From positions 1 through 25,545 of the IMG/VR virus record IMGVR_UViG_3300037308_000581: a stretch of 25,545 nt of DNA; one strand, 5' to 3'. The stretch comes from a virus (lineage: Duplodnaviria > Caudoviricetes). Numbering within the stretch: the stretch's first letter is position 1; every line of letters begins with the position of its first letter. This document shows positions 1,888 to 24,401 of this stretch, in pieces. The notes beneath the pieces were generated by a model that ran no database searches, was not told where the DNA came from, and worked only from the letters and a program-made list of their open reading frames with translations. The position numbers were made by a program, and so were the translations under genes.

Positions 1888-3747
1888 TTATTCCTCCTTC
1901 TTAGCAGGATTCGGACTATTCAAACTACGACTCTGCCCGCTCGTACCCTGTGGATTACTATTATCTTTTTGCTCTGGTGTAGAACCCCCGCTATTTGAAT
2001 TTGATTCTCCTTGAGTGCCTGGAGGGGGAGCAGTTAGGCCAAGCAACTCGGGTGGGGGTAGAATTTCTTCCAAATTGTTAACTCTATATGCTTCAAGACG
2101 CCGCCTAATCAAATTAAAAACAATCTGAGGAGCAATCATCTGAAGCATAGGAATAAATGGTTGCATGGTTTGCCACTCTACATCATTAGCGGCCATCCTC
2201 TCCTTAGCGATGGCCATACGACCATCAATAAGCGGAATAACAAAATCATCAGGAGCATAATCCGTACCCGCTACAGTAACTATCTGAGGGCTACCCGTCA
2301 AATCTACTGCGTGCATATACTGAGTAACGGAAAGATATTTCCCATTAAGCCGATAAACTTTCTCTAGCTCCTCCTTCCAGCTTTCAACCAATCTCTCATG
2401 AATACTAGAATATACTTGTTGACTCTGTTCAAGCAGGGCAAGAACAGTGTTAGGTTGAAGCACCTTAGATATCTGACCCGTAGTACTCTCAGTAACCATA
2501 CCCAAGCGATCGGCTTTAGCGTTGAGCATTTCCAACAGGGAAGCACACAACGGGCTAGGTTCTTGCAATTCCAGCGTCTTAAGCCCTTTCTCTATATCTT
2601 CGGGGGATGCTGCCGTGCGAATGAACCTACCTACTTCCAGCTTTACCCCCTCTCCAATAAGACCGGGAGTAAGCCGGTTCGAGACAAACCCTGACATCCT
2701 GCCCACCGTAGAAAGAATCATCCCATCCAGGGCAAGACGGAGAAGACGATTAACTGCAATATTAAGTTGCCCGATAATCGACCCATACCCTAGCCCATAG
2801 ATACCATCTACATTAGGCAGGAAGTAGTAATGGGAGAAATACTCAATAGGCTGGAAATCATCCAACGGCTGACCTAGTTCATCAACCTCATATCGAATAG
2901 TGATCCTCAGAGGTTTCTTTGTCACCCAGTCCACCCATACGATAACTGGGATCATGATACCGCCCTTCTCTTCAATAAAGCGGTGTTGTTCCAGAATCAC
3001 ACAATAATCAGTTGTCTGATTCTGGGAGCTAGGTTCAACCCCAATCTCCTTATCCATCAGATGATCAACGTCGGTATACTCTTCCGTCAAATCAGTAGCA
3101 GGGACAGGAAGAGAGGAAAAGAACCCCTGCGCATGCAAACGTTTACACTTCCAAAACGGAATAGTAAGCACATGCGTCTTACGGGGTAGGTCGGCCATCG
3201 AGACACGACCCTTTGTGTAAGGCAGGATAAGTTCAGAGGGGCGTACATTCTCTACGACCGGAATACCCTTAGACCAATCATAATAAGTCTTAGTGAACAT
3301 ACTCCCGCGAATGGCAACACCAAGGAACAAAGCATCCTTATCTGCTTTATATCCCTTCATCTTGTCGAGTAGCTGCCATGTCATATGGTCCTCTACCCGC
3401 TTCGCCCGTTGAGTATCGAATAGCCCCCCTTTACCTCCGGGGACTACTCGAATAATGCGACGATTAGTAAAAATAGACCCATAAGCACGAGCGGCAAACT
3501 GATTACACGCCTCAGTCAAAATAGGCATGTTCTCTGTACTGCCCCCTTCAACAGGGGAGCTAATCTCATGCCGCTGGTGGTACAAAGCAAGCCACTCCTT
3601 TTGCTTTGTAAACCACCCAGCATTCTGATCTTTATCGATCTTATATGATTCACATACCTCGTTCCCTAAATCTCGTGCCTTCTTTGACGACCAAACAGGG
3701 GTATCAAGAAGGTTCTGAAATTCAGGTGGTATTAGTTTCGGGTCCAT
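1888..3747 (-). CDS. portal protein (podovirus-type head-tail connector)
   Basis: 619 aa with portal-like motifs: PILTEACNQFAARAY, AKRVEDHMTWQL, G..FTKTYYD, YFSHY.FLP..DGIYGLG, T.LALLEQ...VYSSIHERL......EL...YRLN. Confidence 0.85.
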   Translation of the reverse strand: MDPKLIPPEFQNLLDTPVWSSKKARDLGNEVCESYKIDKDQNAGWFTKQKEWLALYHQRHEISSPVEGGSTENMPILTEACNQFAARAYGSIFTNRRIIRVVPGGKGGLFDTQRAKRVEDHMTWQLLDKMKGYKADKDALFLGVAIRGSMFTKTYYDWSKGIPVVENVRPSELILPYTKGRVSMADLPRKTHVLTIPFWKCKRLHAQGFFSSLPVPATDLTEEYTDVDHLMDKEIGVEPSSQNQTTDYCVILEQHRFIEEKGGIMIPVIVWVDWVTKKPLRITIRYEVDELGQPLDDFQPIEYFSHYYFLPNVDGIYGLGYGSIIGQLNIAVNRLLRLALDGMILSTVGRMSGFVSNRLTPGLIGEGVKLEVGRFIRTAASPEDIEKGLKTLELQEPSPLCASLLEMLNAKADRLGMVTESTTGQISKVLQPNTVLALLEQSQQVYSSIHERLVESWKEELEKVYRLNGKYLSVTQYMHAVDLTGSPQIVTVAGTDYAPDDFVIPLIDGRMAIAKERMAANDVEWQTMQPFIPMLQMIAPQIVFNLIRRRLEAYRVNNLEEILPPPELLGLTAPPPGTQGESNSNSGGSTPEQKDNSNPQGTSGQSRSLNSPNPAKKEE

Positions 3748-3755
3748 CTAACCCC

Positions 3756-5678
3756 CTAAAAATTAGCAAGCGTCACCACCGGGGGAATAACCTCAGGGGT
3801 GCGCTCAGAAATCAAACTAGCAATAACCCCATTCTCAACCTCGTCAAATGTAAAACCTACACGCGGAGGAATATTTCTCCAAACATGAGCAACCATACCG
3901 TCACCGTGTACTTGCATATCAAGATCAAAGGAAGAAAATTTCGCCATCTCGATAAGGCGCTTCATCTCCTTCATTTCGTTTGTCTGCGCCATGTATTCGA
4001 GAGTGGTCCAATACTCCCGACCAAACTCTTTCACCTTGACATATTTACGAAGCCCATTTTCAGTACGCTTCTCAGGATCAGGATTCGTATCAAAATACTG
4101 ATCATATGCGTACAGGTGAAACTTTTGAAAACCGAGACACTGCGCAAGGGAAATACCTCGGGTACAAGATGCAGAACCACCGGAAATCAAGATAGGCACT
4201 TTATGAAACTCGGGTACGATTTTCTCTGCTGTGCTTATATTAGCATGCCAACCAATAACCTTAGCCCCCTTCTCTAGCAGCACATCCACGGTAGAGGAAT
4301 GTACCATAGAAGCAACAAAATAAATAACGTCGGGGTGAGGATCAGAAATAAAATCTTTGACATGACCACGAGGATCAAGAAGGATACATCCATATGGTAC
4401 CACCCCCTCAGCAAGCAATTTATCATGCGCATGCTTAACACAAAACACATAATGTCCTTGCTCGACATGAGTACGAATGTCCCCAAGATGATCCCGGATC
4501 AACGAAGGACCCCCGGAGCACATAACTGCTACCATGTCATGCTTCTTGCACGGGGCAATCCAATTCTTAATGCGTGGAATATTTACACGCAAATTCTCCG
4601 CCACCTGTTCATTAGGAACACAAGTTTTAGTCTGTACCTGTAACTGGACAGTGCCAACAGGCCACATTGACAGCGGCGAAAAATACATTGCCACTTCTTT
4701 TTTCTCGCCGTTAACATAAACATCCTCGCCTTTACCGGAAGGCAACGGAGAACTATCAAGAATTACCGAATGACCAAAATATGGATGCAAGGTACGAAGG
4801 GTATCGTTATCAGGACGCGGATACAATTCATCTTCAATAAAGAAATACCGCACTTTATCTTTCAGTGAATTAAGATATTCCATCTTTACCTTTTCCGACA
4901 ACCCGGTAAAAAACATAAAAGCTACATCGATATCTGAGTGGTTTTCTGGGTCAGTGACAAACTTCACTGTACTCCCTAAACCGCCACAAGCGAGTTCGAT
5001 ATAAAACAGCCGCAGCGAATCATGAGTGTTGGTGCAACACTTCCACTCCTTGCCCTCCTCCTTCGGCACATGACGAACAAACTCAAACATGGGCAAGAAG
5101 CGTGTCATCTTAAATGAGGTTGACGGATAAATAGCCATCGAGATGCGAACATTGCCCAAAACATCCACAACGGGAAGGGCGGTAGCATTCTCTTTATCTA
5201 CGACTGTATTACACCCGAATTTTGTAACATCGACACCAGAACGATAATAATCATCCAACAGCACAACTTTTGCTTTCTCTTTACAATAATCAAAATCTGA
5301 TTTAATTGTTTGTACAGAATGCCCACCATCAATAATGGCAAGATCATACTCGCCATCAACGTCTTTAAGTGTGGTCTTCGAATCCCCAACAAGCAAACGC
5401 CACGAAAAATTTGGATACTGCTTAGCAAGCTCCTCAAGCTTTTTCTCAAACTCAAAAGACGAGATTACTGATTTCTTGTTTAACTCCTTTCTATTAATCT
5501 CTTCTGTTATTTTTTCAAAGTAATCTACGCCTAAATAACGCACCGGAGCACCGTCTGCAACTGAGAGTAGCAGACCAATATTCTCTACGCTACGGTTGCC
5601 ATCACCGACGCCGACTTCCAACAACGAGGTAACACGATTCAGAATAATAGCCTCTCGGATATGCTGATACCTACGCAC
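3756..5678 (-). CDS. class I SAM methyltransferase (Methyltransf_24-like) fused to Maf/DUF115 (MptE-like) domain
   Basis: N-term LLEVGVGDG (motif I), YLGVDYF, GDS, DLAIIDGGH, VLLDDY. C-term AVMCSGGPSL, GVVPYGCILLDP, ISGGSAS..RGISLA..LGFQKFHLYAYD, typical of the MAF_flag10/DUF115 family. Confidence 0.75.
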   Translation of the reverse strand: MRRYQHIREAIILNRVTSLLEVGVGDGNRSVENIGLLLSVADGAPVRYLGVDYFEKITEEINRKELNKKSVISSFEFEKKLEELAKQYPNFSWRLLVGDSKTTLKDVDGEYDLAIIDGGHSVQTIKSDFDYCKEKAKVVLLDDYYRSGVDVTKFGCNTVVDKENATALPVVDVLGNVRISMAIYPSTSFKMTRFLPMFEFVRHVPKEEGKEWKCCTNTHDSLRLFYIELACGGLGSTVKFVTDPENHSDIDVAFMFFTGLSEKVKMEYLNSLKDKVRYFFIEDELYPRPDNDTLRTLHPYFGHSVILDSSPLPSGKGEDVYVNGEKKEVAMYFSPLSMWPVGTVQLQVQTKTCVPNEQVAENLRVNIPRIKNWIAPCKKHDMVAVMCSGGPSLIRDHLGDIRTHVEQGHYVFCVKHAHDKLLAEGVVPYGCILLDPRGHVKDFISDPHPDVIYFVASMVHSSTVDVLLEKGAKVIGWHANISTAEKIVPEFHKVPILISGGSASCTRGISLAQCLGFQKFHLYAYDQYFDTNPDPEKRTENGLRKYVKVKEFGREYWTTLEYMAQTNEMKEMKRLIEMAKFSSFDLDMQVHGDGMVAHVWRNIPPRVGFTFDEVENGVIASLISERTPEVIPPVVTLANF

Positions 5679-6495
5679 CTACGTAATCTCCCTTACGTGG
5701 ACCTTTATAGTGCTTCATGTAGTTATTCAAAATAGTATATTCCCATACATTTTTCAACACGTGATTATTATGTTTATCGCTCCACTCCCAGGGATCAAAA
5801 TCCGCCGGAACAAGATTACGATAAAAATAACCACCGGCACGAAGAGTCTTCGACAATACCGCAGTATCGGTAAATTCGTCTAAAGTATACAAATCACCGC
5901 TCACAAAGGCATTAAACATAGTATTAAGGAATTTAACTCCTCGTGCTCTCAAATTAAAGGCAATAAAACCGTTCTCCGCATAAACACTTGCAAGTTTATC
6001 AGTAGGCTTCCGCTCCAACACTACTAAATCACAATTATCATCCAAAACAAGCGAGTAAAACTCGTCATCAATAGTACGTATAAACTCTACGTCTGCGTCA
6101 ACCCATACAAGCCAATCATAATCAAGTCTATTACGTCTAATATAATTAGATTCCTGAACCAGGGCCAAGATCTTCGGGAAAAACCTGTGGGCTTGAGAGC
6201 GGAAGGAATTACAAAAGGCCAAAGTTTCTTTCTCTCTCTCAGTACCTTTATGTACTTCATAAATATCCTTTATCAAAGAAACATGCCGATTATAAAACGC
6301 AACAAGATAATTTTCCTTCAGCCTGCGCAAAAAAGGAAATCCGTCGTTATTCTCAAAGACAGCGGGATTTTCTATATACACCGTTAAAGCGGGAAGGCAC
6401 AGAGAAGCACTATTAACAAAACGTTTACCATACCACTCATATGCCTTGGGGTGAAACGAAGATATCCACTTAACACGCTGCGATGCACTTCTCAC
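5671..6495 (-). CDS. GT-A fold glycosyltransferase
   Basis: WLVWVDADV (DxD motif), ENGFIAFN, acidic D-T-A-V-L segment, C-terminal HYKG; overlaps both neighbours. Confidence 0.75.
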   Translation of the reverse strand: MRSASQRVKWISSFHPKAYEWYGKRFVNSASLCLPALTVYIENPAVFENNDGFPFLRRLKENYLVAFYNRHVSLIKDIYEVHKGTEREKETLAFCNSFRSQAHRFFPKILALVQESNYIRRNRLDYDWLVWVDADVEFIRTIDDEFYSLVLDDNCDLVVLERKPTDKLASVYAENGFIAFNLRARGVKFLNTMFNAFVSGDLYTLDEFTDTAVLSKTLRAGGYFYRNLVPADFDPWEWSDKHNNHVLKNVWEYTILNNYMKHYKGPRKGDYVGA

Positions 6496-7444
6496 AAACT
6501 GTACCCTCTACGTTCTTGTTAAGGTGAGCACGACGCATAGCCGTAAACTTATTGCTATTCCATCCATCCATAAAGGGAGTGGTTTTAAGATCAGCCATGA
6601 AAAAACGTTCATCACCATCAAAGCAACATAAGTTCAGTTGACCATCCCAAGTAATGTGCGCCTCGGTAAACAAAGACCAGCAAGGCAGCGGATCTCTTAG
6701 GCACCCCATGCGCCCACGATTACCGGGAGTAGGTTTCCAGCCCCTCTCCTTCTCCTGCTTGAAACAAAAGCTACTCATTGTATATAGTGGTAGCGCATAT
6801 ACCTCGTCAAAGCAATCACGAAATTGTTCGATTTTTTCTCGCATCCTTTCACCTTGCTCACCATCATATTCAATATAAGAAGCATAGAGACGGCACATAT
6901 GCCCCGTTTCCAAATATACCGCATCCCGAACCTTGGATGCCTGCATAATATTTTCAAGCATCGCATAATAACTTTTTTCGTTAACGCGGGCGATCGACTT
7001 AAATTGCTCTACGTCTGCATAATTAAAAGAAAACTTCAAGCTGTCAAGCCCCGCAGCAAAGCATTTATGGAGCCGTTTAGGATTGGCAAGACTTCCATTA
7101 GTAGTGAGGAAAACATATGGATAATTAGCAATATGTTTCGCAAAATGAATCTCTTCCTCAAGTTTAACGTTAGTAAACGGCTCCCCGAGATAGAAGAGCC
7201 CGATTTCCTGTACCCCCGCCTCACGCATCTCCAGCAAAAGTCTCTTGAATAGCTCTTGGTCCATTACTTCATGCCGACGATTGCCGAGCCCACGAGCACA
7301 AAAATAGCAGTTAAAATTGCACCGCCCCGTTGTTTCAATCTTACACGAAATTGGGGCGGGACAAACCCCGCTCGGGTCACGATATTCCTGAGGAATACCG
7401 GTAACCTTATCTATACGTTTAGTAATAGTATCAGTAGCACCCAT
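6470..7444 (-). CDS. radical SAM enzyme with SPASM/Twitch auxiliary Fe-S domain
   Basis: CNFNCYFC (CxxxCxxC), GEP, TTNG; C-terminal CWSLF...DG.LNLCCFD...CEKC. Start placed at ATG 7444 (GAAGGAGG SD) rather than 7486. Confidence 0.92.
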   Translation of the reverse strand: MGATDTITKRIDKVTGIPQEYRDPSGVCPAPISCKIETTGRCNFNCYFCARGLGNRRHEVMDQELFKRLLLEMREAGVQEIGLFYLGEPFTNVKLEEEIHFAKHIANYPYVFLTTNGSLANPKRLHKCFAAGLDSLKFSFNYADVEQFKSIARVNEKSYYAMLENIMQASKVRDAVYLETGHMCRLYASYIEYDGEQGERMREKIEQFRDCFDEVYALPLYTMSSFCFKQEKERGWKPTPGNRGRMGCLRDPLPCWSLFTEAHITWDGQLNLCCFDGDERFFMADLKTTPFMDGWNSNKFTAMRRAHLNKNVEGTVCEKCIAAC

Positions 7445-7601
7445 CCAACCCCCCTCCTTCGGGGAAGCCACCTTGGCGTACTTCAATACTGAGTTCTTCT
7501 AACTCAGCACGAAGCTGTTGAATTTCATCGAGCATCTCAATAAGAATATCTTTTGCCTCGTCATCCAGGGACAAAGCAAGAATACGTCTCTCCATAATCA
7601 T
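7431..7601 (-). CDS. small acidic coiled-coil hypothetical protein (56 aa)
   Basis: MIMERRILALSLDDEAKDILIEMLDEIQQLRAELEEL...; GGAG SD; ATGA overlap with the upstream stop. Confidence 0.6.
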   Translation of the reverse strand: MIMERRILALSLDDEAKDILIEMLDEIQQLRAELEELSIEVRQGGFPEGGGLDGCY

Positions 7602-8398
7602 AACACTCCAAGAAATTTCCACGGCTCCGGGGTCCGTAATTCTTCTAATGTCCATTGATATGCAGCAAGAATTTCAAACAACCGCTCTCTCTTCGCCTCA
7701 AAATCATGGTAATCTGGTTGCTCTAAACTGTCATATCCCCACCCCATACAATCCGCCACTGAAGGACCAAGGGCTATTACTGGGACACCATATCGTAAAG
7801 CCTCGGTAGCAGCATTGGAGCTGTGAACAACTACACAATAAGCATCAGTCAAAAAATCACGAAGCTGCCCCTCGTATTTTTTCTTAACCACTATCGGGCG
7901 GTCTGTATAATAGGATAACTCCTTCACAACCTCACGAATCCAGCCTTCGTGATCCAATTTCAGCCAGGGAAAATGTTCAGAAAACATAGTTGTTGGACCA
8001 CAAACGATAACGTTCCTACCGTTACGATTTAAAGGATATAAATCTACAGACTTTTTTATTCTACACCACCGACTTCGATCAATCGGTGGGTAAACAAAGC
8101 GATCAAAAGCATCGCTAACAGAAAGACCGTTGGGCGTAACACGATAATAACCGCCGTAATGTCCTCTGAGAAAATAACCGTTGTCAATGTGGTAAAACGG
8201 ATGTTGTGCCCAAACCGCTTTACAAATAACCTCATTACACCCTCTCAAAACACCCCACACTACAGCCGGTCCAGGTAAAAGTTCAGTAGTCTCTACTATC
8301 TGACCACCACAGCCAACAGCGGCGGAAGCACAAACTACACGACTATGCACATGATCAGTCATGTACACACGAGGTTTATTGTTGCTTTGCTTTCTCAT
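7598..8398 (-). CDS. KpsS/Capsule_synth-like GT-B glycosyltransferase
   Basis: HIDNGYF; YTDRPIVVK; AYCVVVHSSNAATEALRYGVPVIALG resembles the KpsS/KpsC xSSxGxEALxxGxPV motif. Start placed at ATG 8398, just downstream of a promoter. Confidence 0.65.
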   Translation of the reverse strand: MRKQSNNKPRVYMTDHVHSRVVCASAAVGCGGQIVETTELLPGPAVVWGVLRGCNEVICKAVWAQHPFYHIDNGYFLRGHYGGYYRVTPNGLSVSDAFDRFVYPPIDRSRWCRIKKSVDLYPLNRNGRNVIVCGPTTMFSEHFPWLKLDHEGWIREVVKELSYYTDRPIVVKKKYEGQLRDFLTDAYCVVVHSSNAATEALRYGVPVIALGPSVADCMGWGYDSLEQPDYHDFEAKRERLFEILAAYQWTLEELRTPEPWKFLGVL

Positions 8399-8405
8399 AG
8401 GGCGT

Positions 8406-8433
8406 AGTATACACAATGTTGAGGCTATTTCAA
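8406..8433 (-). promoter_or_regulatory. promoter of the glycosyltransferase-portal operon (apparently leaderless)
   Basis: Minus strand TTGAAA (8433-8428), N16, TATACT (8411-8406), 7 nt, ATG 8398; no SD. Confidence 0.6.
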
Positions 8434-8457
8434 TGGCCATTTACCAGAGGAAACACA

Positions 8458-9003
8458 ATGAGCGACATTCATCTTTTCCAATTACTGAAACAACGATATC
8501 ACCGCCTCACTCAAGAACAAATAGACGGGGTAAATTTTCTTGTCGGTCGTCTCCGCAACAATGAAGAATTGCTCAACAATCAACGGGCCTACATTATGGC
8601 TACTGTTGAGCACGAGACCGCCGCTCGGTTCCAGCCGATCATTGAGTATGGAAGCCGAAAATACTTCGAGCGATATGAAGGCCGCAAAAACCTCGGAAAT
8701 ATTTACACCGGCGATGGATATAAATATCGCGGAAGAGGGTACGTCCAAATCACTGGCCGGAGGAACTACGCAAAGTTCGGGCTAGAGGACGAGCCGGAAA
8801 AGGCCCTCGAACCAGAAATTGCTTATGACATCCTGGTTAGAGGAATGATGAACGGAATGTTCACCGGAAGAAAACTCTCCGACTTTGTAAATGTGGACGT
8901 ATCCAATTTCATTCACGCTCGTCAAGTCGTTAATGGCGTTGATAGAGCAGCAAAGATTGCGGATTTTGCAGAGTCTTGGAGGACTGCTTTTCTATGGTAC
9001 TAG
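8458..9003 (+). CDS. glycoside hydrolase family 19 endolysin
   Basis: HET (catalytic Glu), EYG, GN...[26 protein letters not shown]; AGAGG SD before ATG 8458. Confidence 0.9.
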
Positions 9004-11546
9004 GATACCAGTACACCCCCCAACCTCGTCAGAGGTTAATGCACAACACCAAGGCTAAACAAATCCTATACGGTGGGGCAGCGGGCGGAGGGAAAGTCAT
9101 CGCCTATTCAGATAATGTCCTTACCCCTTTTGGGTTTAAGGCCAACAAAGATTTACAGATAGGAGACATTATAAACAAGCCGGAGGGTGGCACCTGTCGT
9201 ATAATCCAACTCCACCCATGGCAAACATTACCAACTACAAGAGTGACCTTTTCCGACCATACATCCCTAGACGTTCATATGGACCATCTATGGTACGCTT
9301 GGCGGGCAAGTAAGTCTCGCAAACTTCAAGGAAGCCGGGTTTTTGGAGAAGCTTCAGCAGAAATAGTTGAAACTCGGGAAATCAAAAGCTGGTTGGACAA
9401 AAGGCATAACGTACTTATCCCCCTATGTAAACCCCAAGAATTTACTACCCCCTCTAAATATGGGGTTTTAATCGACCCATATATTTTAGGCGTCTTATTG
9501 GGGGATGGTATCCTCTCTGCACAAGGCATAGTCCTCTCTACCGGAGAGAGGGATAAACCCTTCATGCGAGAGCAACTAAATGGATATGAAATATCTGAGT
9601 GGAAAGGAGCTTTTCGATTTTGTTTGGATAGTGGCAAAAAACTAATTAAGGATCTTACCACGTATAAATTATTAGGGGCCAAATCTGATACAAAATTTAT
9701 CCCAAACGCCTATAAACTGGGCAATCTAGACACAAGGAAACAACTCCTTGCTGGTCTTATGGACACTGACGGAACGGTAAATAAAAGAGGGCACCTGTCC
9801 TATACCACAGTAAGTAAACAACTAGCAGAAGATGTTGCCTTCGTCGTCCGCTCACTTGGTGGCATGGCTACCATCACAACTAGAACACCATTCTACAGAA
9901 AAAACGATGAAAAAATATATGGTAAGCTCGCATATACCCTATACATTAAATTACCGTTCAACCCTTGCAGAATGCCGAGGAAATCCGAAAGATTTTCCAT
10001 ACAGCAACATTACTATCGACGAATTATACACGTTGAGGAAACCGGGGAATCTTTTGTTGGAAGATGCATTACAGTATCTAACCCCTCAGGATTATACATA
10101 ACAAATGATTTTATCGTTACACACAATAGTAAATCAATCCGACAAGACGCTATCCGCTTTGCCATGGAGAACCCAGGATTTCAAGGATATCTATTCCGCA
10201 AGTCCCGCATGGAGCTACAGAACACCCATATCCGAGCCATCCAGCTAGAGCTACCACCACATTTAGGGATTGGTGAATACTCAGAAAAGCGCAATGCCTT
10301 CGAGTTCAAGAATACATCTATCATCAACTTCTGTTATGCGGAAGACTTGAAGGACGTTCGCCGTTACCTCTCTGAGGAAATGCACTGGTTAGGGATTGAT
10401 GAAGCAAGCACGTTCCTGCCCGACGCCCTGGGTTTCCTGATCTCCCGCGTCCGACTAGGGGGATGGACGCCAAAGGTAGATAAAGACAGGTTGCCTAGAA
10501 TTATCTACGCAACTAACCCTGGGGGTCCGTCACATAACTATCTAAAGGCTAAGTTCATCACTCGGTTTCATGATGACGGTATCACTCCTGTTCAGCCGGA
10601 GGAAATCTTTTATGACGACGAATTGAAAGATCCGTTCGATCCTAACGACAAGGGAATGACCTCGATATACATTCCCGCAAAAACGTCGGATAATAAATAC
10701 CTCGACAAGAACTATGCTGCCATGTTCTCCATGCTACCCCCGGAGCTAGCAAAAGCCTATCGACAAGGTGATTGGGATATCGTCTTAGGTCGGGCGATCC
10801 ATAACCTGGACCGCAACCGCCATATGATCCCCCCATTCGTGCCACCATCACACTGGACCATCTTCTCTAGCCTAGACTGGGGTATGGCTAGCCCCTTCTC
10901 CTGGGGGCTGTACTGTGTCTCTGAAGGGCTAGTACATCCTAACGGCACTTATCTACCGCCAGGAGCACTTATTCGCTTCAAGGAATGGTACGGGTGGACA
11001 GGTAAGCCAAACCAAGGATTAGGTATGGCGCCCCAAGATGTGGCTAGGGGATGTAAGGAAAGGGAGGAGAAATTTAACCTTACTTATCGAATTGCCGACA
11101 ATGAAATCTTCGCGAAAAAGGGCGGACCTTCTATTGCGGAATGGATACAAGAAGCTGTACCAGGGATGACATTCAACCCCAGTGTAAAAGACAGGAAACA
11201 GAACTACAACGAAGTCATTGCCCGCCTAGCGGGGAACCCATACTACTTTGCGTCGGGTGAAAAGCAAGGACTGGTAGAACAACACCCACAGCTATTCGTT
11301 ACTGCCGATTGCATTCATTTTTGGCGTACTGTCCCCACCCTAGAGCTAGACGAAACCGACCCGGAAAAAGGACCGGCAACAAAGAATGTTGAGGACCATA
11401 TCTATGATGAAGTAGCGTATGCCTGTCGTTCACGCCCATTTATCACATCCCTGCAACACCTAGAGGAATTAGAACTGAAGAAATGGAGAAGGGAGGCAGA
11501 GATTAAACCATCTGCCATACCCTTCTCCACAGTTCGATTAGGATAG
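8994..11546 (+). CDS. terL: terminase large subunit (intein-containing)
   Basis: Walker A GGAAGGGK|S split by an intein; Walker B LGIDEA; ATNPGG coupling motif; DNKYL; nuclease SLDWG and [17 protein letters not shown] before ATG 8994. Confidence 0.93.
9096..10127 (+). mobile_element. class 3 intein with LAGLIDADG homing endonuclease (344 aa)
   Basis: Inserted between GGGK and S of the P-loop. Starts [11 protein letters not shown], block B HLW, LAGLIDADG motifs [10 protein letters not shown] and [10 protein letters not shown], block F GRCITV, ends IVTHN/S. Confidence 0.92.
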
Positions 11547-13027: not shown

Positions 13028-13055
13028 AGTATAGTGCAATCGTGGAAAATTGCAA
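13028..13055 (-). promoter_or_regulatory. leftward sigma70-type promoter (leaderless)
   Basis: TTGCAA (13055-13050), N16, TATACT (13033-13028), 6 nt, ATG 13021. Confidence 0.65.
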
Positions 13056-13201
13056 GACCCATTTTAAAAAAAATTCGTACTTCTAGTGGTGGTTGTGCAT
13101 TTTCGATCGGTTGTATTTTAGGGGGGTGAAAAATTTTTGTAATTTTCTTTCGCGACCTTAAAAAAAAGTTTGAACGTTTTCAAGGCTTAGCAAACTAGCC
13201 G

Positions 13202-13231
13202 TTGACAACCGTTTTTTGTTATGCATACTAT
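13202..13231 (+). promoter_or_regulatory. rightward sigma70-type promoter upstream of structured element
   Basis: Perfect TTGACA (13202-13207), then TACTAT at N18 (or CATACT at N16); A-tract upstream. Confidence 0.6.
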
Positions 13232-13237
13232 ATAACA

Positions 13238-13448
13238 TATGACACTCACCTATCGGTTCGCTCATGATTTTTGTTCGCTACGCTTCATATCAGACAGAAA
13301 AGGATATCCCTATCGGTACTAGGCCTAGCGTAGCGGGCCGTGTACCACGGCACCTGACAGTGAGTTCCCACTGAGTCCTTCGCTACGATATCCGATAACC
13401 CTTTTCCTGTCTAGAATCTTTAGTAATATACGCGTTAGCGTACTTTTT
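13238..13448 (+). ncRNA. candidate structured ncRNA (or structured ssDNA origin element)
   Basis: Nested complementary segments: 13292-13303/13400-13412, 13311-13316/13392-13397, 13329-13335/13381-13387, plus hairpins 13337-13351 and 13358-13373; flanked by a promoter and a terminator-like hairpin. Confidence 0.5.
13429..13448 (+). terminator. weak intrinsic terminator-like hairpin
   Basis: TACGC-GTTA-GCGTA followed by CTTTTT; stem is only 5 bp. Confidence 0.35.
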
Positions 13449-13495
13449 GGTGATAATTGTATCCATATTATGAGAATCTAATATTATCGAAAAGC

Positions 13496-13523
13496 TTGAC
13501 ACTCAACAAAAAAATGTTATCAT
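13496..13523 (+). promoter_or_regulatory. rightward promoter of replication operon (extended -10, leaderless)
   Basis: TTGACA (13496-13501), N16 ending TGT, TATCAT (13518-13523), 6 nt, ATG 13530. Confidence 0.7.
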
Positions 13524-13529
13524 TGGGAT

Positions 13530-13877
13530 ATGGCTATCATCAGAGGTGGTGCCCGGTTGCGGCACCCGAAAAAGCTAGCAACCCAAGCGTTCTACTTTCC
13601 GGAGGATTTATACAAGGCATTGTCCTCCGCTTCCTCAATCTCCCTGTCGGAGAAGCTTCGCACGATCGTAGGATATGAGCCTATGACCTTGGAGGAGTTT
13701 GTTAAGTATGACGCTCCGACTCCGAAAAATAGGGCGCGACTCAACGTGACCCTTGAAGCCGCGCAATTGGGCATGCTATCTTATATGGCGCACGAGTTTA
13801 CGAAAGCTTTGGACGCCTATGTTTCTGCAACAAGGGTAGTGTGCGCTTATGTGCGTAGATTCACAGAGGATAGTTAG
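13530..13877 (+). CDS. putative tandem ribbon-helix-helix DNA-binding regulator
   Basis: Two RHH-like units: TQAFYFPEDLYKAL...SLSEKLRTIV and RLNVTLEAAQLGML...SATRVVCAYV; first gene after the promoter. Confidence 0.5.
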   Translation: MAIIRGGARLRHPKKLATQAFYFPEDLYKALSSASSISLSEKLRTIVGYEPMTLEEFVKYDAPTPKNRARLNVTLEAAQLGMLSYMAHEFTKALDAYVSATRVVCAYVRRFTEDS

Positions 13878-18913: not shown

Positions 18914-20818
18914 GTGGTAGTAGTTTGCGACTTCGAAACATATTCCGATCTAGATTTACCTACTGTCGGGTCTGATAGGTATTCCAGTCACATATCTACC
19001 GATATAGCTCTGTTTTGTTGGACTTCTGATGGGGTTATATTCAATCTTTGGGTTCCTGATAAGTTTGTTAAGCTAATCCCAAAGTCTGAAACAATTCGCC
19101 CGGTGTCTTGTATACCGGATGATGATATTCATGCGTTTTCCTCTCAGTTTGATGAACGGATTTGGAATCGGGTGGCGGTTCCGAAATATGGTTTTCCTAA
19201 GCTGAAGAAACCAATGCAGTGCCTTTCTGCCCGGTGCTTTCATGCCGGCTTTCCTGGCTCTTTGGCGGAAGCAGCTAAGATTATTTCCCCTTATCAAAAG
19301 GGGAAATCTGTCAAATATCTATTCAACACCCTGAATAAGAAGGGGACGTTGCCCCCTGATAAGTTTGAAATCTTGATAAACTATTGCAAACGGGATGTTC
19401 TTGCTTCTTGGCATTTGCATTTAAAACTTCCTTTGCTCTGCGATTATGAGCAAAAAGTCTTTGCGCTTGATCGCAAGATTAATGCTAGGGGTTTGCCTAT
19501 TGACGTAGAGCGGGTTGTAAAAGCTCGAAAACTGGTTGATGTGGCAACTGCGGATATCAATGATCGTGCTAAGAGATTAACCGGTGGGATAGTTGAGAAC
19601 ATTACAGAAGTCGCGAAGATTAAGGAGTTTTGCAAGCAGGAAGGTGCATCCGTCCTGTCAATTGATAAACGTACAATCGAGCACGAAATAAAGCGTGCGG
19701 ATATCTCTGCCTCTGTTAAGGAGGTTCTTGCCCTTAGGCAAGATGGCGGGAAATCCAGTCTTGCCAAGCTGGATGCTATGCTTGCTGCGGTTGATGAACA
19801 TGGGCGTATTCATCAGCACTTGCAGTACCATGGTACCCATACTGGCAGGTGGGCAGGCAGGATTATTCAGCCACAAAATTTCCCGCGCATAAAGCATATG
19901 ATCGACCCAAACGTATATGATCTATCGTTGCCCGCAGCATACAAGATTATTTGCAGTGTTGGAAAGCCGCTAACGGTTATTTCTTCCTCCTTGCGGAATT
20001 TTATTCGCCCTAAGCTGGATAAGGTACTTTTTGTTGCTGATTATGCTACCATCGAAGCACGCATTGTTTTTTGGCTCGCCAAGGAATTTGAAATCCTGGA
20101 AAAGGTGAAAACAGGTACCGATATTTATTGCTGGGCGGCGAGTGATTTCTATAAGCGGGAAATCACTAAGGAGAACGAGAAAGAACGCTTCCTATTCAAG
20201 TCTGCAATCTTGGGTTGTGGATATGGAATGGGGGCGGGAAGGTTCTCCGAGATGTTCGGGGTTTCCCTTGCCGAAGCGGAAGTTGCAATCAATTGGTACC
20301 GTAACCGCTTTGGGAACGTAAAAAAGCTATGGTATGCCCTTCAGGAGGGGGCTAAGAGGGCAATCCAGAACCCTGGAACGCGAGTTAGGGTGGGGCAGGT
20401 GGTTTTCTCCTGCGATCGTGAATATCTCATTCTCCGCCTTCCCTCGGGTCGGTGCTTGAGGTACTGGAACCCGAAGGTAACAGTAGTCGCGGAGGACTGG
20501 CGCGATATAATCACCTATGAAGGAAACAAGGCATTTAACGGGGCAAAGGTGTGGGGTGCTATTCGAATTTGGGGAGGTACGTTTCTGGAAAACATTTCCC
20601 AAGCTATCGCAAGGGATATCACAGTTGAAGGCATTTTTAGGCTTGAAGACAACGATTTTCCTGTTATATTACAGGTCCACGATGAAATTGTTAGTGAAGT
20701 TCCAAGGGGGCGTGACCTAACCAAGTTTATCGAATTGTTAACCACCCCTGTTTCATGGGCTCCTGATTTGCCCTTGGCAGTAGAGGCGAAGGAGTTGGAG
20801 CATTATGTTAAGTTATAA
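18914..20818 (+). CDS. family A DNA polymerase with 3'-5' exonuclease domain
   Basis: ExoI CDFET, ExoIII YCKRDV, TGRWAG..QPQNFPR, motif A DYATIEAR, motif B R...KSAILG.GYG, motif C VHDE. Confidence 0.95.
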   Translation: MVVVCDFETYSDLDLPTVGSDRYSSHISTDIALFCWTSDGVIFNLWVPDKFVKLIPKSETIRPVSCIPDDDIHAFSSQFDERIWNRVAVPKYGFPKLKKPMQCLSARCFHAGFPGSLAEAAKIISPYQKGKSVKYLFNTLNKKGTLPPDKFEILINYCKRDVLASWHLHLKLPLLCDYEQKVFALDRKINARGLPIDVERVVKARKLVDVATADINDRAKRLTGGIVENITEVAKIKEFCKQEGASVLSIDKRTIEHEIKRADISASVKEVLALRQDGGKSSLAKLDAMLAAVDEHGRIHQHLQYHGTHTGRWAGRIIQPQNFPRIKHMIDPNVYDLSLPAAYKIICSVGKPLTVISSSLRNFIRPKLDKVLFVADYATIEARIVFWLAKEFEILEKVKTGTDIYCWAASDFYKREITKENEKERFLFKSAILGCGYGMGAGRFSEMFGVSLAEAEVAINWYRNRFGNVKKLWYALQEGAKRAIQNPGTRVRVGQVVFSCDREYLILRLPSGRCLRYWNPKVTVVAEDWRDIITYEGNKAFNGAKVWGAIRIWGGTFLENISQAIARDITVEGIFRLEDNDFPVILQVHDEIVSEVPRGRDLTKFIELLTTPVSWAPDLPLAVEAKELEHYVKL

Positions 20819-21620
20819 GGATGCTCCCTATTCCTTAGAAAACGGGTATCTAAATTGGGTATTTAGACTTACGGGCGCTGGGTATGCAGTTTTTCCCATT
20901 AAAGGGAAAATTCCGTACCCCGGTTCTCATGGACATAAGGATGCAACTACAGATTACAAAGTATTCCGTAATCTCTTAAACGTGCACAATAACTGTGAGC
21001 CGAGCAATATTGCTGTCGCTACGGGGCAAGTAAGCCAGCTTACTGCCTTGGATATTGATAGTGAAGAAGCGCTTCAAAAACTTCAATCTGTGGGGCTATG
21101 TAAATTAGAACCACCTAATATTGTTCAAAAGAGTGGTCGTAAGGAAGGTGGATATCATTTTTTCTATAGGTATATTCCCCAATTGAAGACCACGACTAAT
21201 GCTCTCGTAAAGGTAGATGTTAGAAACGATAATTCGTCCATTACTATCATGCCTTCGGTGCATAGTTCCGGTAACCCGTATAAGATCATTGTTGGGGATG
21301 AAGCATTCCTTAACCGACAATTACCACCTATGCCAAAGCAACTTCTTGCCCTATTACTTCCAAGAGCCTCGTTTTCATCTAAAAAAAAAGAGCCGGGAGC
21401 TTACTCGCGCTTTACGATAGGCGATATTGAAGTGGGAGAGCGAAATTCGGCCTTTACAAGTCTCGCTGGGTTCCTATATAAAAATTTGAGAGGAGAAAAC
21501 GATCTTATCGAATTTATGGTATCGCAATGCAACGAGCAATTGCAATACCCCCTTAAGAGAGACGAGCTTGACAGAATACTAGAAAGTGTGAGAAAATATC
21601 ATGAAGAGCTTGACTTCTGA
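20805..21620 (+). CDS. bifunctional primase/polymerase (Prim-Pol) with PriCT-1 domain
   Basis: VFP...KIP....GHKDATTD, NIAVATG, LDID, GGYHFFY, DVR, PSVH.SG..Y; C-term GERN..FTSLAG...PL..DEL..I.ESV. Confidence 0.9.
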   Translation: MLSYKDAPYSLENGYLNWVFRLTGAGYAVFPIKGKIPYPGSHGHKDATTDYKVFRNLLNVHNNCEPSNIAVATGQVSQLTALDIDSEEALQKLQSVGLCKLEPPNIVQKSGRKEGGYHFFYRYIPQLKTTTNALVKVDVRNDNSSITIMPSVHSSGNPYKIIVGDEAFLNRQLPPMPKQLLALLLPRASFSSKKKEPGAYSRFTIGDIEVGERNSAFTSLAGFLYKNLRGENDLIEFMVSQCNEQLQYPLKRDELDRILESVRKYHEELDF

Positions 21621-21834
21621 TCGGACTGTGTGTAAAAAGGTCGTGTGTGACCATTGCAGGAGATGTAGGGTTATGAAGACCGCGGGTTTTAATGTTGAAG
21701 GATGCCCACATTGCAAGAAAACCTTGGATACTTATTTTCTTGGGTATCTAAAAGGATTTTTGTATCAGTGCAAAACTTGTGGTGGTACGTATACTCTTGA
21801 TACACCACCCGTATATAAGGCGGAAGAAGAATGA
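21601..21834 (+). CDS. zinc-finger protein
   Basis: CDHCRRC, CPHC, CKTC motifs in 77 aa. Confidence 0.65.
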   Translation: MKSLTSDRTVCKKVVCDHCRRCRVMKTAGFNVEGCPHCKKTLDTYFLGYLKGFLYQCKTCGGTYTLDTPPVYKAEEE

Positions 21835-22421
21835 AATACGTCCATGGTGAATTTCTCCTTAGGCAAAGTATTAGAGTTGAACGCTCTGGTGTTCATGCTC
21901 ATGTTACACCAGAGATTGAGCGCCTTATAACAGATGGAAATCATTTGGTCCCGTGGAAGCCGTTGTACGCGGGCGGGAAGTACTTTGTTTCCTCCTCTGT
22001 TCTTTTCCTCAAGGGAAAACGTCGCTATTACGACGTTCCTGTCTTAGGACCCGCAAGGAGCTATTCTCAACTTGAAATCCCCGCTTCGATGGCAAGAGAG
22101 ATTGGGGTTCCTGTGTTTTATACAATGTCGGGCAAGAATCTTAACGAGGCGCCGAAAATTAAAATCGGTACCAAATTCTCCCCCGTGGTGCACTTTGAAA
22201 TTCCGGTGATCTCGGTGCTCCCACACATACATGTTAAGAAGGACATCGGTGTTAAGCAGGTAAGGTTAATCGTGTTGAGCCCTAAAAAGATGACTCTGGT
22301 ATTACAAGTCTGTCCTGGTGAAGATATTGAGAATACTTGTATTCATCTTGATCCCGATGAATATGCCGCAATCGGGGTAGATGATAATAGTTTTGATGGG
22401 GTATTGGACTATGCGTGCTAA
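21831..22421 (+). CDS. pduL: PduL-like phosphotransacylase (phosphate propanoyltransferase family)
   Basis: Colinear PduL motifs: S..HAH, L...K.L...G.Y, V.VLGPAR..SQLEI, SG..L, VI....HIH, HLDPDE.AA.G. Confidence 0.8.
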   Translation: MKYVHGEFLLRQSIRVERSGVHAHVTPEIERLITDGNHLVPWKPLYAGGKYFVSSSVLFLKGKRRYYDVPVLGPARSYSQLEIPASMAREIGVPVFYTMSGKNLNEAPKIKIGTKFSPVVHFEIPVISVLPHIHVKKDIGVKQVRLIVLSPKKMTLVLQVCPGEDIENTCIHLDPDEYAAIGVDDNSFDGVLDYAC

Positions 22422-22611
22422 AGTATGTACTTTTGATAAGCGCTGGTACTTGTCTAAGATGGGTCGGGTACCGGAGTATGTAGAGTACGGAACGAAGAAA
22501 ATTCCTTCCTTTCCTCTCTGTGCTGCTAAAAATTTCATCACTCGTCATCGGAAAGGCTTGTTGATCATTCATCACCTGATTGAGGACACAGATGGCGAAG
22601 AAGAAATCTAA
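22411..22611 (+). CDS. hypothetical protein
   Basis: ATG 22411 overlapping the pduL-like gene end. Confidence 0.5.
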   Translation: MRAKVCTFDKRWYLSKMGRVPEYVEYGTKKIPSFPLCAAKNFITRHRKGLLIIHHLIEDTDGEEEI

Positions 22612-22801
22612 CCCTTTCGAAATAGAACAATGGGAGGGAGAGGTTTTCTCAGTTCATGGATTTACTCTGCGCTACTATGGGTATGATGTGGCAGAGCTAT
22701 ATAAAGATGGAGCACCTGCGTTTATTGAATTTCTTAAATGGGCAGAAAAAACTTATATCAGGAGAAAAGAGAATGAAACTACTAAAGCAACTCGTAAATG
22801 A
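22592..22801 (+). CDS. hypothetical protein
   Basis: GAGGA SD before ATG 22592. Confidence 0.55.
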   Translation: MAKKKSNPFEIEQWEGEVFSVHGFTLRYYGYDVAELYKDGAPAFIEFLKWAEKTYIRRKENETTKATRK

Positions 22802-22880
22802 TCCCGTAGTTATGCGCGGTCTTGCACTTTGGCTGTTTATTTTAATCTTGATTTTTGGTGGCACGCTATGCGGAAATTAG
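22773..22880 (+). CDS. 35-aa membrane micropeptide
   Basis: MKLLKQLVNDPVVMRGLALWLFILILIFGGTLCGN; AGGAG SD. Confidence 0.5.
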   Translation: MKLLKQLVNDPVVMRGLALWLFILILIFGGTLCGN

Positions 22881-23851
22881 TACTCATTTTTGGTTCTACG
22901 GGGCAGGATGGTTCTCTTCTGCTTAATGATATTGATGACCACCATTATTCTGTGCTCGCTGTTAAGCGCCCGACTTCGAACACTTGGCGCTGGAAGCATC
23001 TAAAAATTGACCCTTGTGTTGTGGTAGGGGACATTACAGACAATATCTTTGTAAATAATCTTATCGCGGATACAAAACCCGATTACATCTACAATCTTGC
23101 TGCCCATTCTTTTGTCGGTACCTCGTGGGATATGCCGCATGAAGTCATGGCGGTGAATGGTATCGGATTGGTGAATATCCTTTCCGCTGTTCTTCGGCAT
23201 TCACCTAACAGCCGAGTATTCCATGCCAGTACCTCGGAGATGTTCGGGAACGTTCTTGATCTTAACGATTTAATAGACGGCAGGAAGCTCACACTAGAAG
23301 ATCCTATGCACCCAGTTAGCCCATATGGTGCAGCAAAGTTGTATGCCCATCATATGTGTCAAATTTATCGTGATCGTGGCGTAAATGTTACAACTGCGGT
23401 GATGTTCAATCACGAATCTAAGTATCGCGGGGAAGAATTTGTAACGATGAAAATTGCCCGGCGAGTAAAAGGGGCGATGGATATATATCCCAGAAAGGCG
23501 TTTGTTCAGTTGGGAAATATGCAAGTTATGAGAGATTGGGGGCATGCTCAAGATTTTGTGGAAGCGATGCAGCAGGTAATTGGATCAAATAAGGATTGCC
23601 TGTTTGCGACAGGTAAAGCACACACTATTTCATATTTTGTTAAACAGTGTGCAATTCAGTACCGCGCTATAACGGGGCATGATGTACCCGATCCTGAAAC
23701 GTATGGTATGGCTGATGCTTATGTTCGGCCGTCTGAGTTGTATTACCTTCAGGGCGATCCTACTGATTTGACCGAGATTATTGAGCGCCCTCCGCTTGGG
23801 GTGGAAGCAATCGCCGCTGAGATGATGAGGTTTGTTATCAAAGGAGAATAG
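22868..23851 (+). CDS. gmd: GDP-mannose 4,6-dehydratase
   Basis: GSTGQDGS, YNLAAHSFV..SW, ASTSEMFG, SPYGAAKLY (YxxxK), FNHES..RG..FVT.KI, LGN....RDWGHA.D, RPSE...L.GD. Confidence 0.92.
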   Translation: MRKLVLIFGSTGQDGSLLLNDIDDHHYSVLAVKRPTSNTWRWKHLKIDPCVVVGDITDNIFVNNLIADTKPDYIYNLAAHSFVGTSWDMPHEVMAVNGIGLVNILSAVLRHSPNSRVFHASTSEMFGNVLDLNDLIDGRKLTLEDPMHPVSPYGAAKLYAHHMCQIYRDRGVNVTTAVMFNHESKYRGEEFVTMKIARRVKGAMDIYPRKAFVQLGNMQVMRDWGHAQDFVEAMQQVIGSNKDCLFATGKAHTISYFVKQCAIQYRAITGHDVPDPETYGMADAYVRPSELYYLQGDPTDLTEIIERPPLGVEAIAAEMMRFVIKGE

Positions 23852-23852
23852 C

Positions 23853-24401
23853 ATGATTCATACCGGGTTTTGGGATATTGAGACAACTGATCTCAAGGCG
23901 AATATGGGGCGTGTTCTTGTCTCCTGTGTAAAGGATATGATCTCGGGGCAAGTTATCTCCCTTCGGGCGGATTCCTATGAGTGGTTTGCCGATGACGTGA
24001 GCAACGACAAAGATTTGCTTATTGACATCGTGAAGGTCTTAGATAACGTTCGTTTCCTCGTTACGTGGAACGGCAAGCTCTTTGATAGGAAGTTTTTGAA
24101 TGCCCGGTGCATGGCGGCGGGGGTGGTTCCCCCTCGTCCTGTTTTCCATATCGACCTGTATCAGGTTTGGAAGACCCATTGCCGTTCCTATGGGTCTTTG
24201 GATGCGGTGCAACGTCTATTGAAAACCGAAACGCCTAAAACACCTTTGGATTGGCGCACTTGGCAGAATGCCGCCGCGCTGAAAAAAAATGCGCTTGATG
24301 ACGTTGAAACCCATTGCGTTGCCGACGTGGAAGCACTATCTGAAGTGTATCAAAGGATGTTGCATGCGGATTTGATCAAAACCTGTCCAAAGGGGTTCTA
24401 A
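23853..24401 (+). CDS. DEDD / RNase H-like 3'-5' exonuclease (YprB-like)
   Basis: WDIETT, TWNGKLFD, HIDLY, SLDAV, HCVADV; AAGGAG SD before ATG 23853. Confidence 0.85.
   Translation: MIHTGFWDIETTDLKANMGRVLVSCVKDMISGQVISLRADSYEWFADDVSNDKDLLIDIVKVLDNVRFLVTWNGKLFDRKFLNARCMAAGVVPPRPVFHIDLYQVWKTHCRSYGSLDAVQRLLKTETPKTPLDWRTWQNAAALKKNALDDVETHCVADVEALSEVYQRMLHADLIKTCPKGF

Follow-up and report, generated by a model that had tools for sequence, protein, structure and literature searches.

A divergent PduL gene amid the replication genes of a tailed phage

PduL is known from bacterial microcompartments (BMCs) and, in some cells, as a substitute for Pta. What is a PduL-like gene doing among the replication genes of a tailed phage, and is its product still likely to be a transacylase? 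The locus lies on IMG/VR record IMGVR_UViG_3300037308_000581, a tailed-phage fragment (CheckV completeness 54%), of which the whole analysed stretch of 25,545 nucleotides is referred to here as the window. The original prediction had described a PduL-like phosphotransacylase standing alone in a phage replication operon.

Family, fold and genetic context of the phage gene

The frame between 21831 and 22421 (+ strand) was open and encoded a product of 196 amino acids. Analysis of this product with the PF06130 (PTAC) profile of Pfam gave 64.3 bits (cut-off 25; E 1.6e-17), and the match, between residues 16 and 183, covered positions 2–175 of the 176 in the profile. The NCBIfam models PRK15070 (phosphate propanoyltransferase) and BMC_EutD_Gpos missed their cut-offs (66.5 against 209 and 62.8 against 315 respectively) and a PHROG search with the protein gave zero matches. 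An AlphaFold model built on a 46-row alignment had a mean pLDDT of 88.4 and contained the two-beta-barrel fold of PduL. This model matched 5CUO at full length with both Foldseek (E 6e-12, TM 0.79) and VIA-align (Z 20.5, rmsd 2.1 Å over 177 residues; runner-up Z 5.8); PduL was the sole full-length match in these PDB searches, and no phosphoesterase fold was listed. Below 5CUO, the fold searches returned double-psi beta-barrels (CDC48/NSF N-domains and RNA polymerase, Z <6), each covering approximately one of the two barrels of the model. No BFVD viral model matched at E ≤ 0.001, and the ESM Atlas route gave a low-confidence model with matches under the bar. The 21 residues before H22 were modelled as short strands (pLDDT 57 for residues 1–10) and the N-terminal amphipathic encapsulation helix was absent from the model. 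The phage protein is a member of PF06130 that lies outside the BMC-type and NCBIfam PduL subfamilies, and both checks proposed for the PduL assignment, by profile and by structure, bore it out.

The phage genes of the window comprised terminase, portal, holin, endolysin, DnaB, Rad52/Erf, PolA, a primase/polymerase (prim-pol) and an exonuclease. The features on which the following analysis draws were:

1888–3747, − strand: portal protein, a phage hallmark (phrog_1216, E 8.7e-13)
3756–8440, − strand: modification cluster between portal and endolysin (Pfam, with a DxD motif read from the sequence)
8976–11546, + strand: terminase large subunit, a phage hallmark (profile matches)
18914–20818, + strand: family A DNA polymerase, PolA (≤33% identity to GenBank phage proteins)
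20805–21620, + strand: primase/polymerase with Prim-Pol and PriCT_1 (Pfam)
21601–21834, + strand: zinc-ribbon-like ORF of 77 aa that overlaps the start of PduL (Pfam zinc-ribbon below the cut-off, E 0.001–0.002)
21817–21823, + strand: purine run resembling a Shine-Dalgarno sequence, 7 nt upstream of the PduL start (putative function, from the sequence)
21831–22421, + strand: divergent PduL/PTAC gene (Pfam, model and fold matches, residue map)
22381–22611 (in-frame ATG at 22411) and 22580–22801, + strand: two small ORFs with no family match
22829–23851, + strand: GDP-mannose 4,6-dehydratase-like (GMD) gene (PF16363, E 2.9e-68)
23832–24401, + strand: 3′–5′ exonuclease (RNase_H_2, phrog_403)

The start codon of the PduL gene overlapped the upstream stop by 4 nt and its 3′-end was overlapped by the ORF at 22381–22611. 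From PolA through prim-pol, the zinc-ribbon ORF and PduL to the two small ORFs behind it, each gene overlapped the next on the same strand, which suggests that they may share one transcript. Phage genes flanked PduL on both sides, with PolA and prim-pol upstream and the phrog_403 exonuclease downstream. The PduL gene is divergent but intact and lies within the replication region of this tailed phage. The replication setting named in the original prediction was recovered, with PduL overlapping its neighbours in a window that also encoded terminase, portal, DnaB, PolA and prim-pol. As had also been noted, the window contained no microcompartment gene: a BMC shell gene (PF00936) was not found in this 54% complete record, and neither was acetate kinase (PF00871). 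No acyltransferase was present among the 34 ORFs of the window.

Elsewhere in the window, the terminase contained a LAGLIDADG/Hom_end insert at about residues 248–324 that is likely an intein. The modification cluster encoded a Methyltransf_24 and MptE-like fusion (640 aa), a 274-aa DxD ORF without a family match, a radical SAM/SPASM enzyme and a DUF6716 glycosyltransferase-like ORF. The GMD-like gene scored 188 bits with TIGR01472, under the cut-off of 415; together with the cluster it may modify virion or host glycans. The best sigma-70-like matches, at 13202–13231 and 13496–13523, lay in the intergenic region between the two gene arms (13040–13530), and the promoter scan overall was at chance (26 matches against 22.1 ± 4.4).

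The GC content of the PduL gene (0.448; GC3 0.454) was close to that of the window (0.449). The phage was present in three DNA runs, two from freshwater and one from groundwater, with no RNA run listed, and no variants were found within the PduL gene across the three. The upstream PduL junction was bridged by contigs X3 (21632–22352) and X2 (21770–22001) and the downstream junction by X2 (21985–22609), all with zero differences; as these contigs came from two other studies, the gene is not a chimera. A third contig (X1) of 40,438 nt spanned the whole window and may be its own source. Searches for relatives of the phage through PolA and through GMD recovered none among 19 and five candidates respectively.

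Residues of the predicted active site

Residue roles were taken from the passages of PMC4784909 that describe the site (rPduL numbering) and were mapped through the 5CUO alignment, which covered the H48–H159 region, and through a family alignment, which covered all mapped sites. The family alignment comprised 396 distinct PduLs of length 165–480, a non-random sample for which the His motifs were required, and was split into 26 divergent rows and 370 others. P0007 (an unrelated repeat protein), P0029 (without HxH) and P0002 (a fragment of the query) were left out before the counts.

The dimetal ligands named in those passages, H48, H50, E109, H157, H159 and H204, aligned with H22, H24, E82, H132, H134 and H172 of the phage protein respectively, such that all six predicted zinc ligands were retained. 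The phosphate-positioning R103 and S127 were also retained, as R76 and S100, as was Q107. The motifs originally read in the phage protein (H22-x-H24, E82, H132-x-H134, H172 and R76) were each aligned to an rPduL counterpart by this mapping, and the metal and phosphate residues were invariant or nearly so among the 370 other PduLs. That every one of them is kept, at 30–37% identity to the nearest relatives, points to selective retention and not decay.

The surroundings of this core were less conserved. Four of the six CoA contacts were retained (S45, K70, L99 and H204) and two were replaced (R97 by P and N211 by A), both at positions that vary in some cellular PduLs. In total, the periphery residues R47, Q74, Q77, R97, D114, A154 and N211 were replaced and R194 had no counterpart; according to the same parts of PMC4784909, Q74, Q77 and R194 face away from the bound substrates. 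Among the 370 other PduLs, the position of R47 was R/K in 364, Q74 was Q in 351, Q77 was Q/E/D in 354, D114 was D in 363, N211 was N in 346, A154 was A in 331 and R97 was R in 245. The observation that the arginines of both RHxH motifs are replaced was correct, and only the first replacement is unusual, the second position being R in 292/370. The second half was also shortened as described, with an H159–H204 spacing of 38 compared to 45 in 70/112. Overall, the phage PduL kept 22 of the 34 highly conserved (≥85%) columns.

R47 and D114 were lost together in 5/394 rows, representing approximately two independent events or lineages, and singly in six rows (R47) and two rows (D114). This joint loss suggests that the two residues pair structurally, and not that catalysis was lost. 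All seven periphery residues, which are sites picked after the query was seen, were lost in only 4/396 rows, namely the query (P0001), P0003, P0181 and P0005, compared to 336/396 rows in which at most one was lost.

Relatives and other phage copies

A search of 1.84 billion representatives gave 135 matches to the phage PduL at E ≤ 0.001. The nearest relatives shared about 30–37% identity with it, the best non-self match being P0003 (37%, E 2.6e-16), and profile searches extended the divergent set, whose members with a traced source came from metagenome collections only. P0003 and P0181 were 71% identical to each other, kept the metal core and shared the replacements of the query. A 44-row tree built under a mixture model had long branches; one branch (SH-aLRT 95) separated 15 divergent rows, the query among them, from the rest. 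P0001, P0003 and P0005 clustered together (SH-aLRT 94), with the query on a long branch of 0.9 changes per site. A phage-specific PduL clade of the query with P0003, P0181 and P0005 is a tentative lead.

Fifteen short PduLs (P0141–P0153, P0055 and P0069; alignment A4), from metagenome assemblies only, formed a tight clade. Most of its members had Pro before the second HxH and lacked N211. A GTDB scan with A4, covering 33 of 64 parts, gave no A4 member, the best 80 of 568 matches being ≤36% identical; in a metagenome scan with A4, the best 80 of 206 were ≤37% identical. Pattern scans, an insensitive method, returned no relatives from IMG/VR with P0001 (no stretch matched), A4 (0/29), A7 (0/19) or P0083 (0/5), nor from GTDB with A7 (0/65).

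Three queries matched 8, 9 and 12 of 50,697 GenBank phage records, all of them unannotated. Three of these records were inspected and proved to be host-like DNA filed as phage (L172, OR846747.1; L001, MT835662.1; L173, MT836789.1), one containing shell genes within a pdu operon and the other two resembling chromosomal DNA. With 12/50,697 matches and these three host-like records, the idea that GenBank phages commonly encode PduL was rejected; such records would inflate automated counts of phage PduLs. Of six PduL pattern scans of IMG/VR, one revealed four loci from 36 candidates, and another found one of these loci again. Two were in the host flanks of proviruses and one was an incomplete gene that lay at the end of a contig and overlapped a capsid gene. 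In the host-derived flank of one IMG/VR provirus record (L003:6557–8584), acetate kinase and PduL were fused, next to a phosphoketolase.

The fourth locus was in a genuine phage, IMGVR_UViG_3300037484_000776 (G006; regions L004:5930–6943 and L169:12361–19137), of 86,950 nt and 100% CheckV completeness, which encoded terminase, tape measure, RNR and PolA. Its PduL gene of 588 nt, which directly followed a MazG-like gene, encoded a near-canonical protein (P0177, 142 bits). GT32, Methyltransf_24, FkbM and Stealth CR2 genes were located 4–11 kb away. P0177 fell across a starred branch of the tree from the query, which suggests that the two phages may have captured PduL separately, though a clade uniting both proteins was not rejected by an AU test (p 0.204).

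Copies of PduL in phages look rare in these collections. We take K15024 to be the PduL-type orthologue, which fits the JGI names on PF06130 proteins. Among the listed papers and the excerpts consulted there was no study of a phage PduL, and supplementary auxiliary metabolic gene (AMG) tables may list more phage copies. The one listing encountered was a single entry, 'K15024 (putative phosphotransacetylase)', among the viral AMGs in an excerpt of PMC12508846, and the original statement that no phage role of PduL is established agrees with this. A 'PduL' match in PMC7481178 was rejected as an abbreviation of Pandoravirus dulcis, and the main text of PMC11544783 gave no match. Upregulation of host pduL upon phage infection of Listeria is described in an excerpt of PMC12282133.

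Possible functions and comparison with known systems

The reading that we prefer, with a probability of roughly 55%, is that the phage PduL is still an acyl-CoA:phosphate transacylase, encoded by an auxiliary metabolic gene and feeding host acetate kinase. Zinc binding and transacylase activity are predicted from the aligned residues. A two-zinc site would catalyse the reversible reaction of acyl-CoA and phosphate to acyl-phosphate and CoA, and during infection host acetyl-CoA would yield acetyl-phosphate and free CoA. In a fermenting host, acetate kinase could then convert acetyl-phosphate to ATP to the benefit of the phage, and co-expression with PolA and prim-pol would set this activity at the time when phage DNA is made. 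With V in place of A154 the acyl pocket would be narrower, which may favour acetyl over propionyl. The composition of the gene, like that of the window, and the near-canonical PduL of G006 argue for a transacylase; the seven periphery replacements, the missing R194, the 22/34 columns, the low NCBIfam scores and the lack of ackA in the window argue against it. As first proposed, an auxiliary metabolic gene, of predicted transacylase activity, is the best supported reading.

As the seven periphery residues are replaced together, a repurposed dimetal hydrolase was kept as a possible, if rather doubtful, alternative. The two-zinc/R103/S127 core would be kept, the CoA/acyl periphery rebuilt and water used as the nucleophile, with acetyl-phosphate, acyl-CoA or another phosphoester as the substrate; the enzyme could, for example, drain the pool of acetyl-phosphate from which host proteins are acetylated. 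The shared loss of the seven residues in P0001, P0003, P0181 and P0005, the clustering of P0001, P0003 and P0005, and the retention of the metal core alongside the same replacements in P0003 and P0181 are consistent with such an enzyme, as is the comparison of the PduL site to dimetal phosphatases in part of PMC4784909. Against it, S45, K70, L99 and H204 are retained, no gain of a conserved catalytic residue was identified, PduL was the sole full-length fold match, and the comparison with the three sister proteins covers their sequences. The location among DNA-metabolism genes would also suit a hydrolase, but phage metabolic genes usually sit among replication genes. It is unlikely that the query, P0003, P0181 and P0005 constitute a virus-borne hydrolase subfamily draining acetyl-phosphate or another phosphorylated signal, which, if true, would be the first case of the PduL fold serving a purpose other than transacylation. 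The suggested action on nucleotides or defence signals found no support in any part of the analysis.

A transacylase could instead supply acyl-CoA or acyl-phosphate for phage-made glycan decoration and not for ATP. The GMD-like gene 400 nt downstream of PduL, the methyltransferase, glycosyltransferase-like and radical SAM genes of the window and the GT32, Methyltransf_24, FkbM and Stealth genes near the G006 PduL point in this direction. However, there is no acyltransferase among the 34 window ORFs, the association comes from two phages with no baseline frequency for such genes, and about 15 kb of the 40,438 nt contig lies outside the window. We consider this reading improbable, and of the earlier acyl-donor idea what stands is the co-occurrence of glycan genes. 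It is very unlikely that the gene was captured from a host and is now decaying or without catalytic function, or that the assembly is chimeric. The long branch and low NCBIfam scores would fit these explanations, but the frame is open, all ligands are retained, the composition is phage-like, the X2 and X3 contigs bridge the junctions and the X1 contig, possibly the source, spans the window.

As a transacylase, the protein would provide a compact and testable example of how a phage taps the acetyl-CoA/acetyl-phosphate node, on which ATP yield, free CoA and protein acetylation depend, and it would reveal which of the 'conserved' PduL residues an active enzyme can lose. As a hydrolase, it would represent a new activity on the PduL fold.

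Comparison with the PduL of Rhodopseudomonas palustris (5CUO/5CUP; PF06130; described in part of PMC4784909), revealed the same two-barrel fold at 20% identity. The six zinc ligands, R103, S127, Q107, S45, K70 and L99 are shared, whereas R47, Q74, Q77, R97, A154, R194 and N211 are replaced, the H159–H204 spacer is 38 rather than 45, and the phage protein has neither the encapsulation peptide nor a BMC locus. Standing alone is itself not unusual for a PduL. In excerpts of PMC8065083 and PMC3812714, Moorella PduL1/PduL2 serve as the acetate-pathway phosphotransacetylase and the SR1 PduL is annotated as a phosphotransacetylase, both being cellular Pta substitutes that act with acetate kinase or occur beside it. 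Five small gut genomes (G001–G005; L094:10001–10540, L126:3681–4241, L143, L148 and L165), which are incomplete and were chosen among seven or eight loci whose PduL has a short spacer (36–41) and no N211, each encoded one PduL and AckA (5/5), with Pta and BMC genes found in none (0/5). These genomes were of 1.0–1.5 Mb, and three were titled Muribaculaceae despite their small size. Their shortened PduL is likely a housekeeping phosphotransacetylase, and the presence of AckA without Pta suggests that loss of N211 and a short spacer, the two features that this comparison addresses, are compatible with housekeeping transacylation. The original 'stand-alone' description accordingly applies to the window, where no BMC gene was found, but does not set the phage gene apart. 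Like the phage PduL, the gut copies lie outside BMC loci, lack N211 and have a short spacer (36–41); unlike it, they are cellular and retain R47 and Q74, and those of L094 and L126 fall among ordinary PduLs in the tree, apart from the query.

The closest phage parallel is P0177 of G006, which like the query is phage-encoded without a BMC gene, has R47 and D114 replaced and lies near glycan-modification genes; unlike the query, it keeps N211, Q74, A154 and 29 of the 34 conserved columns. Phage-borne Pta/AckA have been proposed, in the parts of PMC7785012 (Cariaco prophage) and PMC12180181 (gut phageome) concerned, to shift acetyl-phosphate/ATP supply in infection, and an excerpt of PMC10401857 reports viral AckA and no Pta. 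The role proposed for those genes resembles the one that we favour for the phage PduL, but the Pta of PMC7785012 and PMC12180181 has a fold unrelated to PduL.
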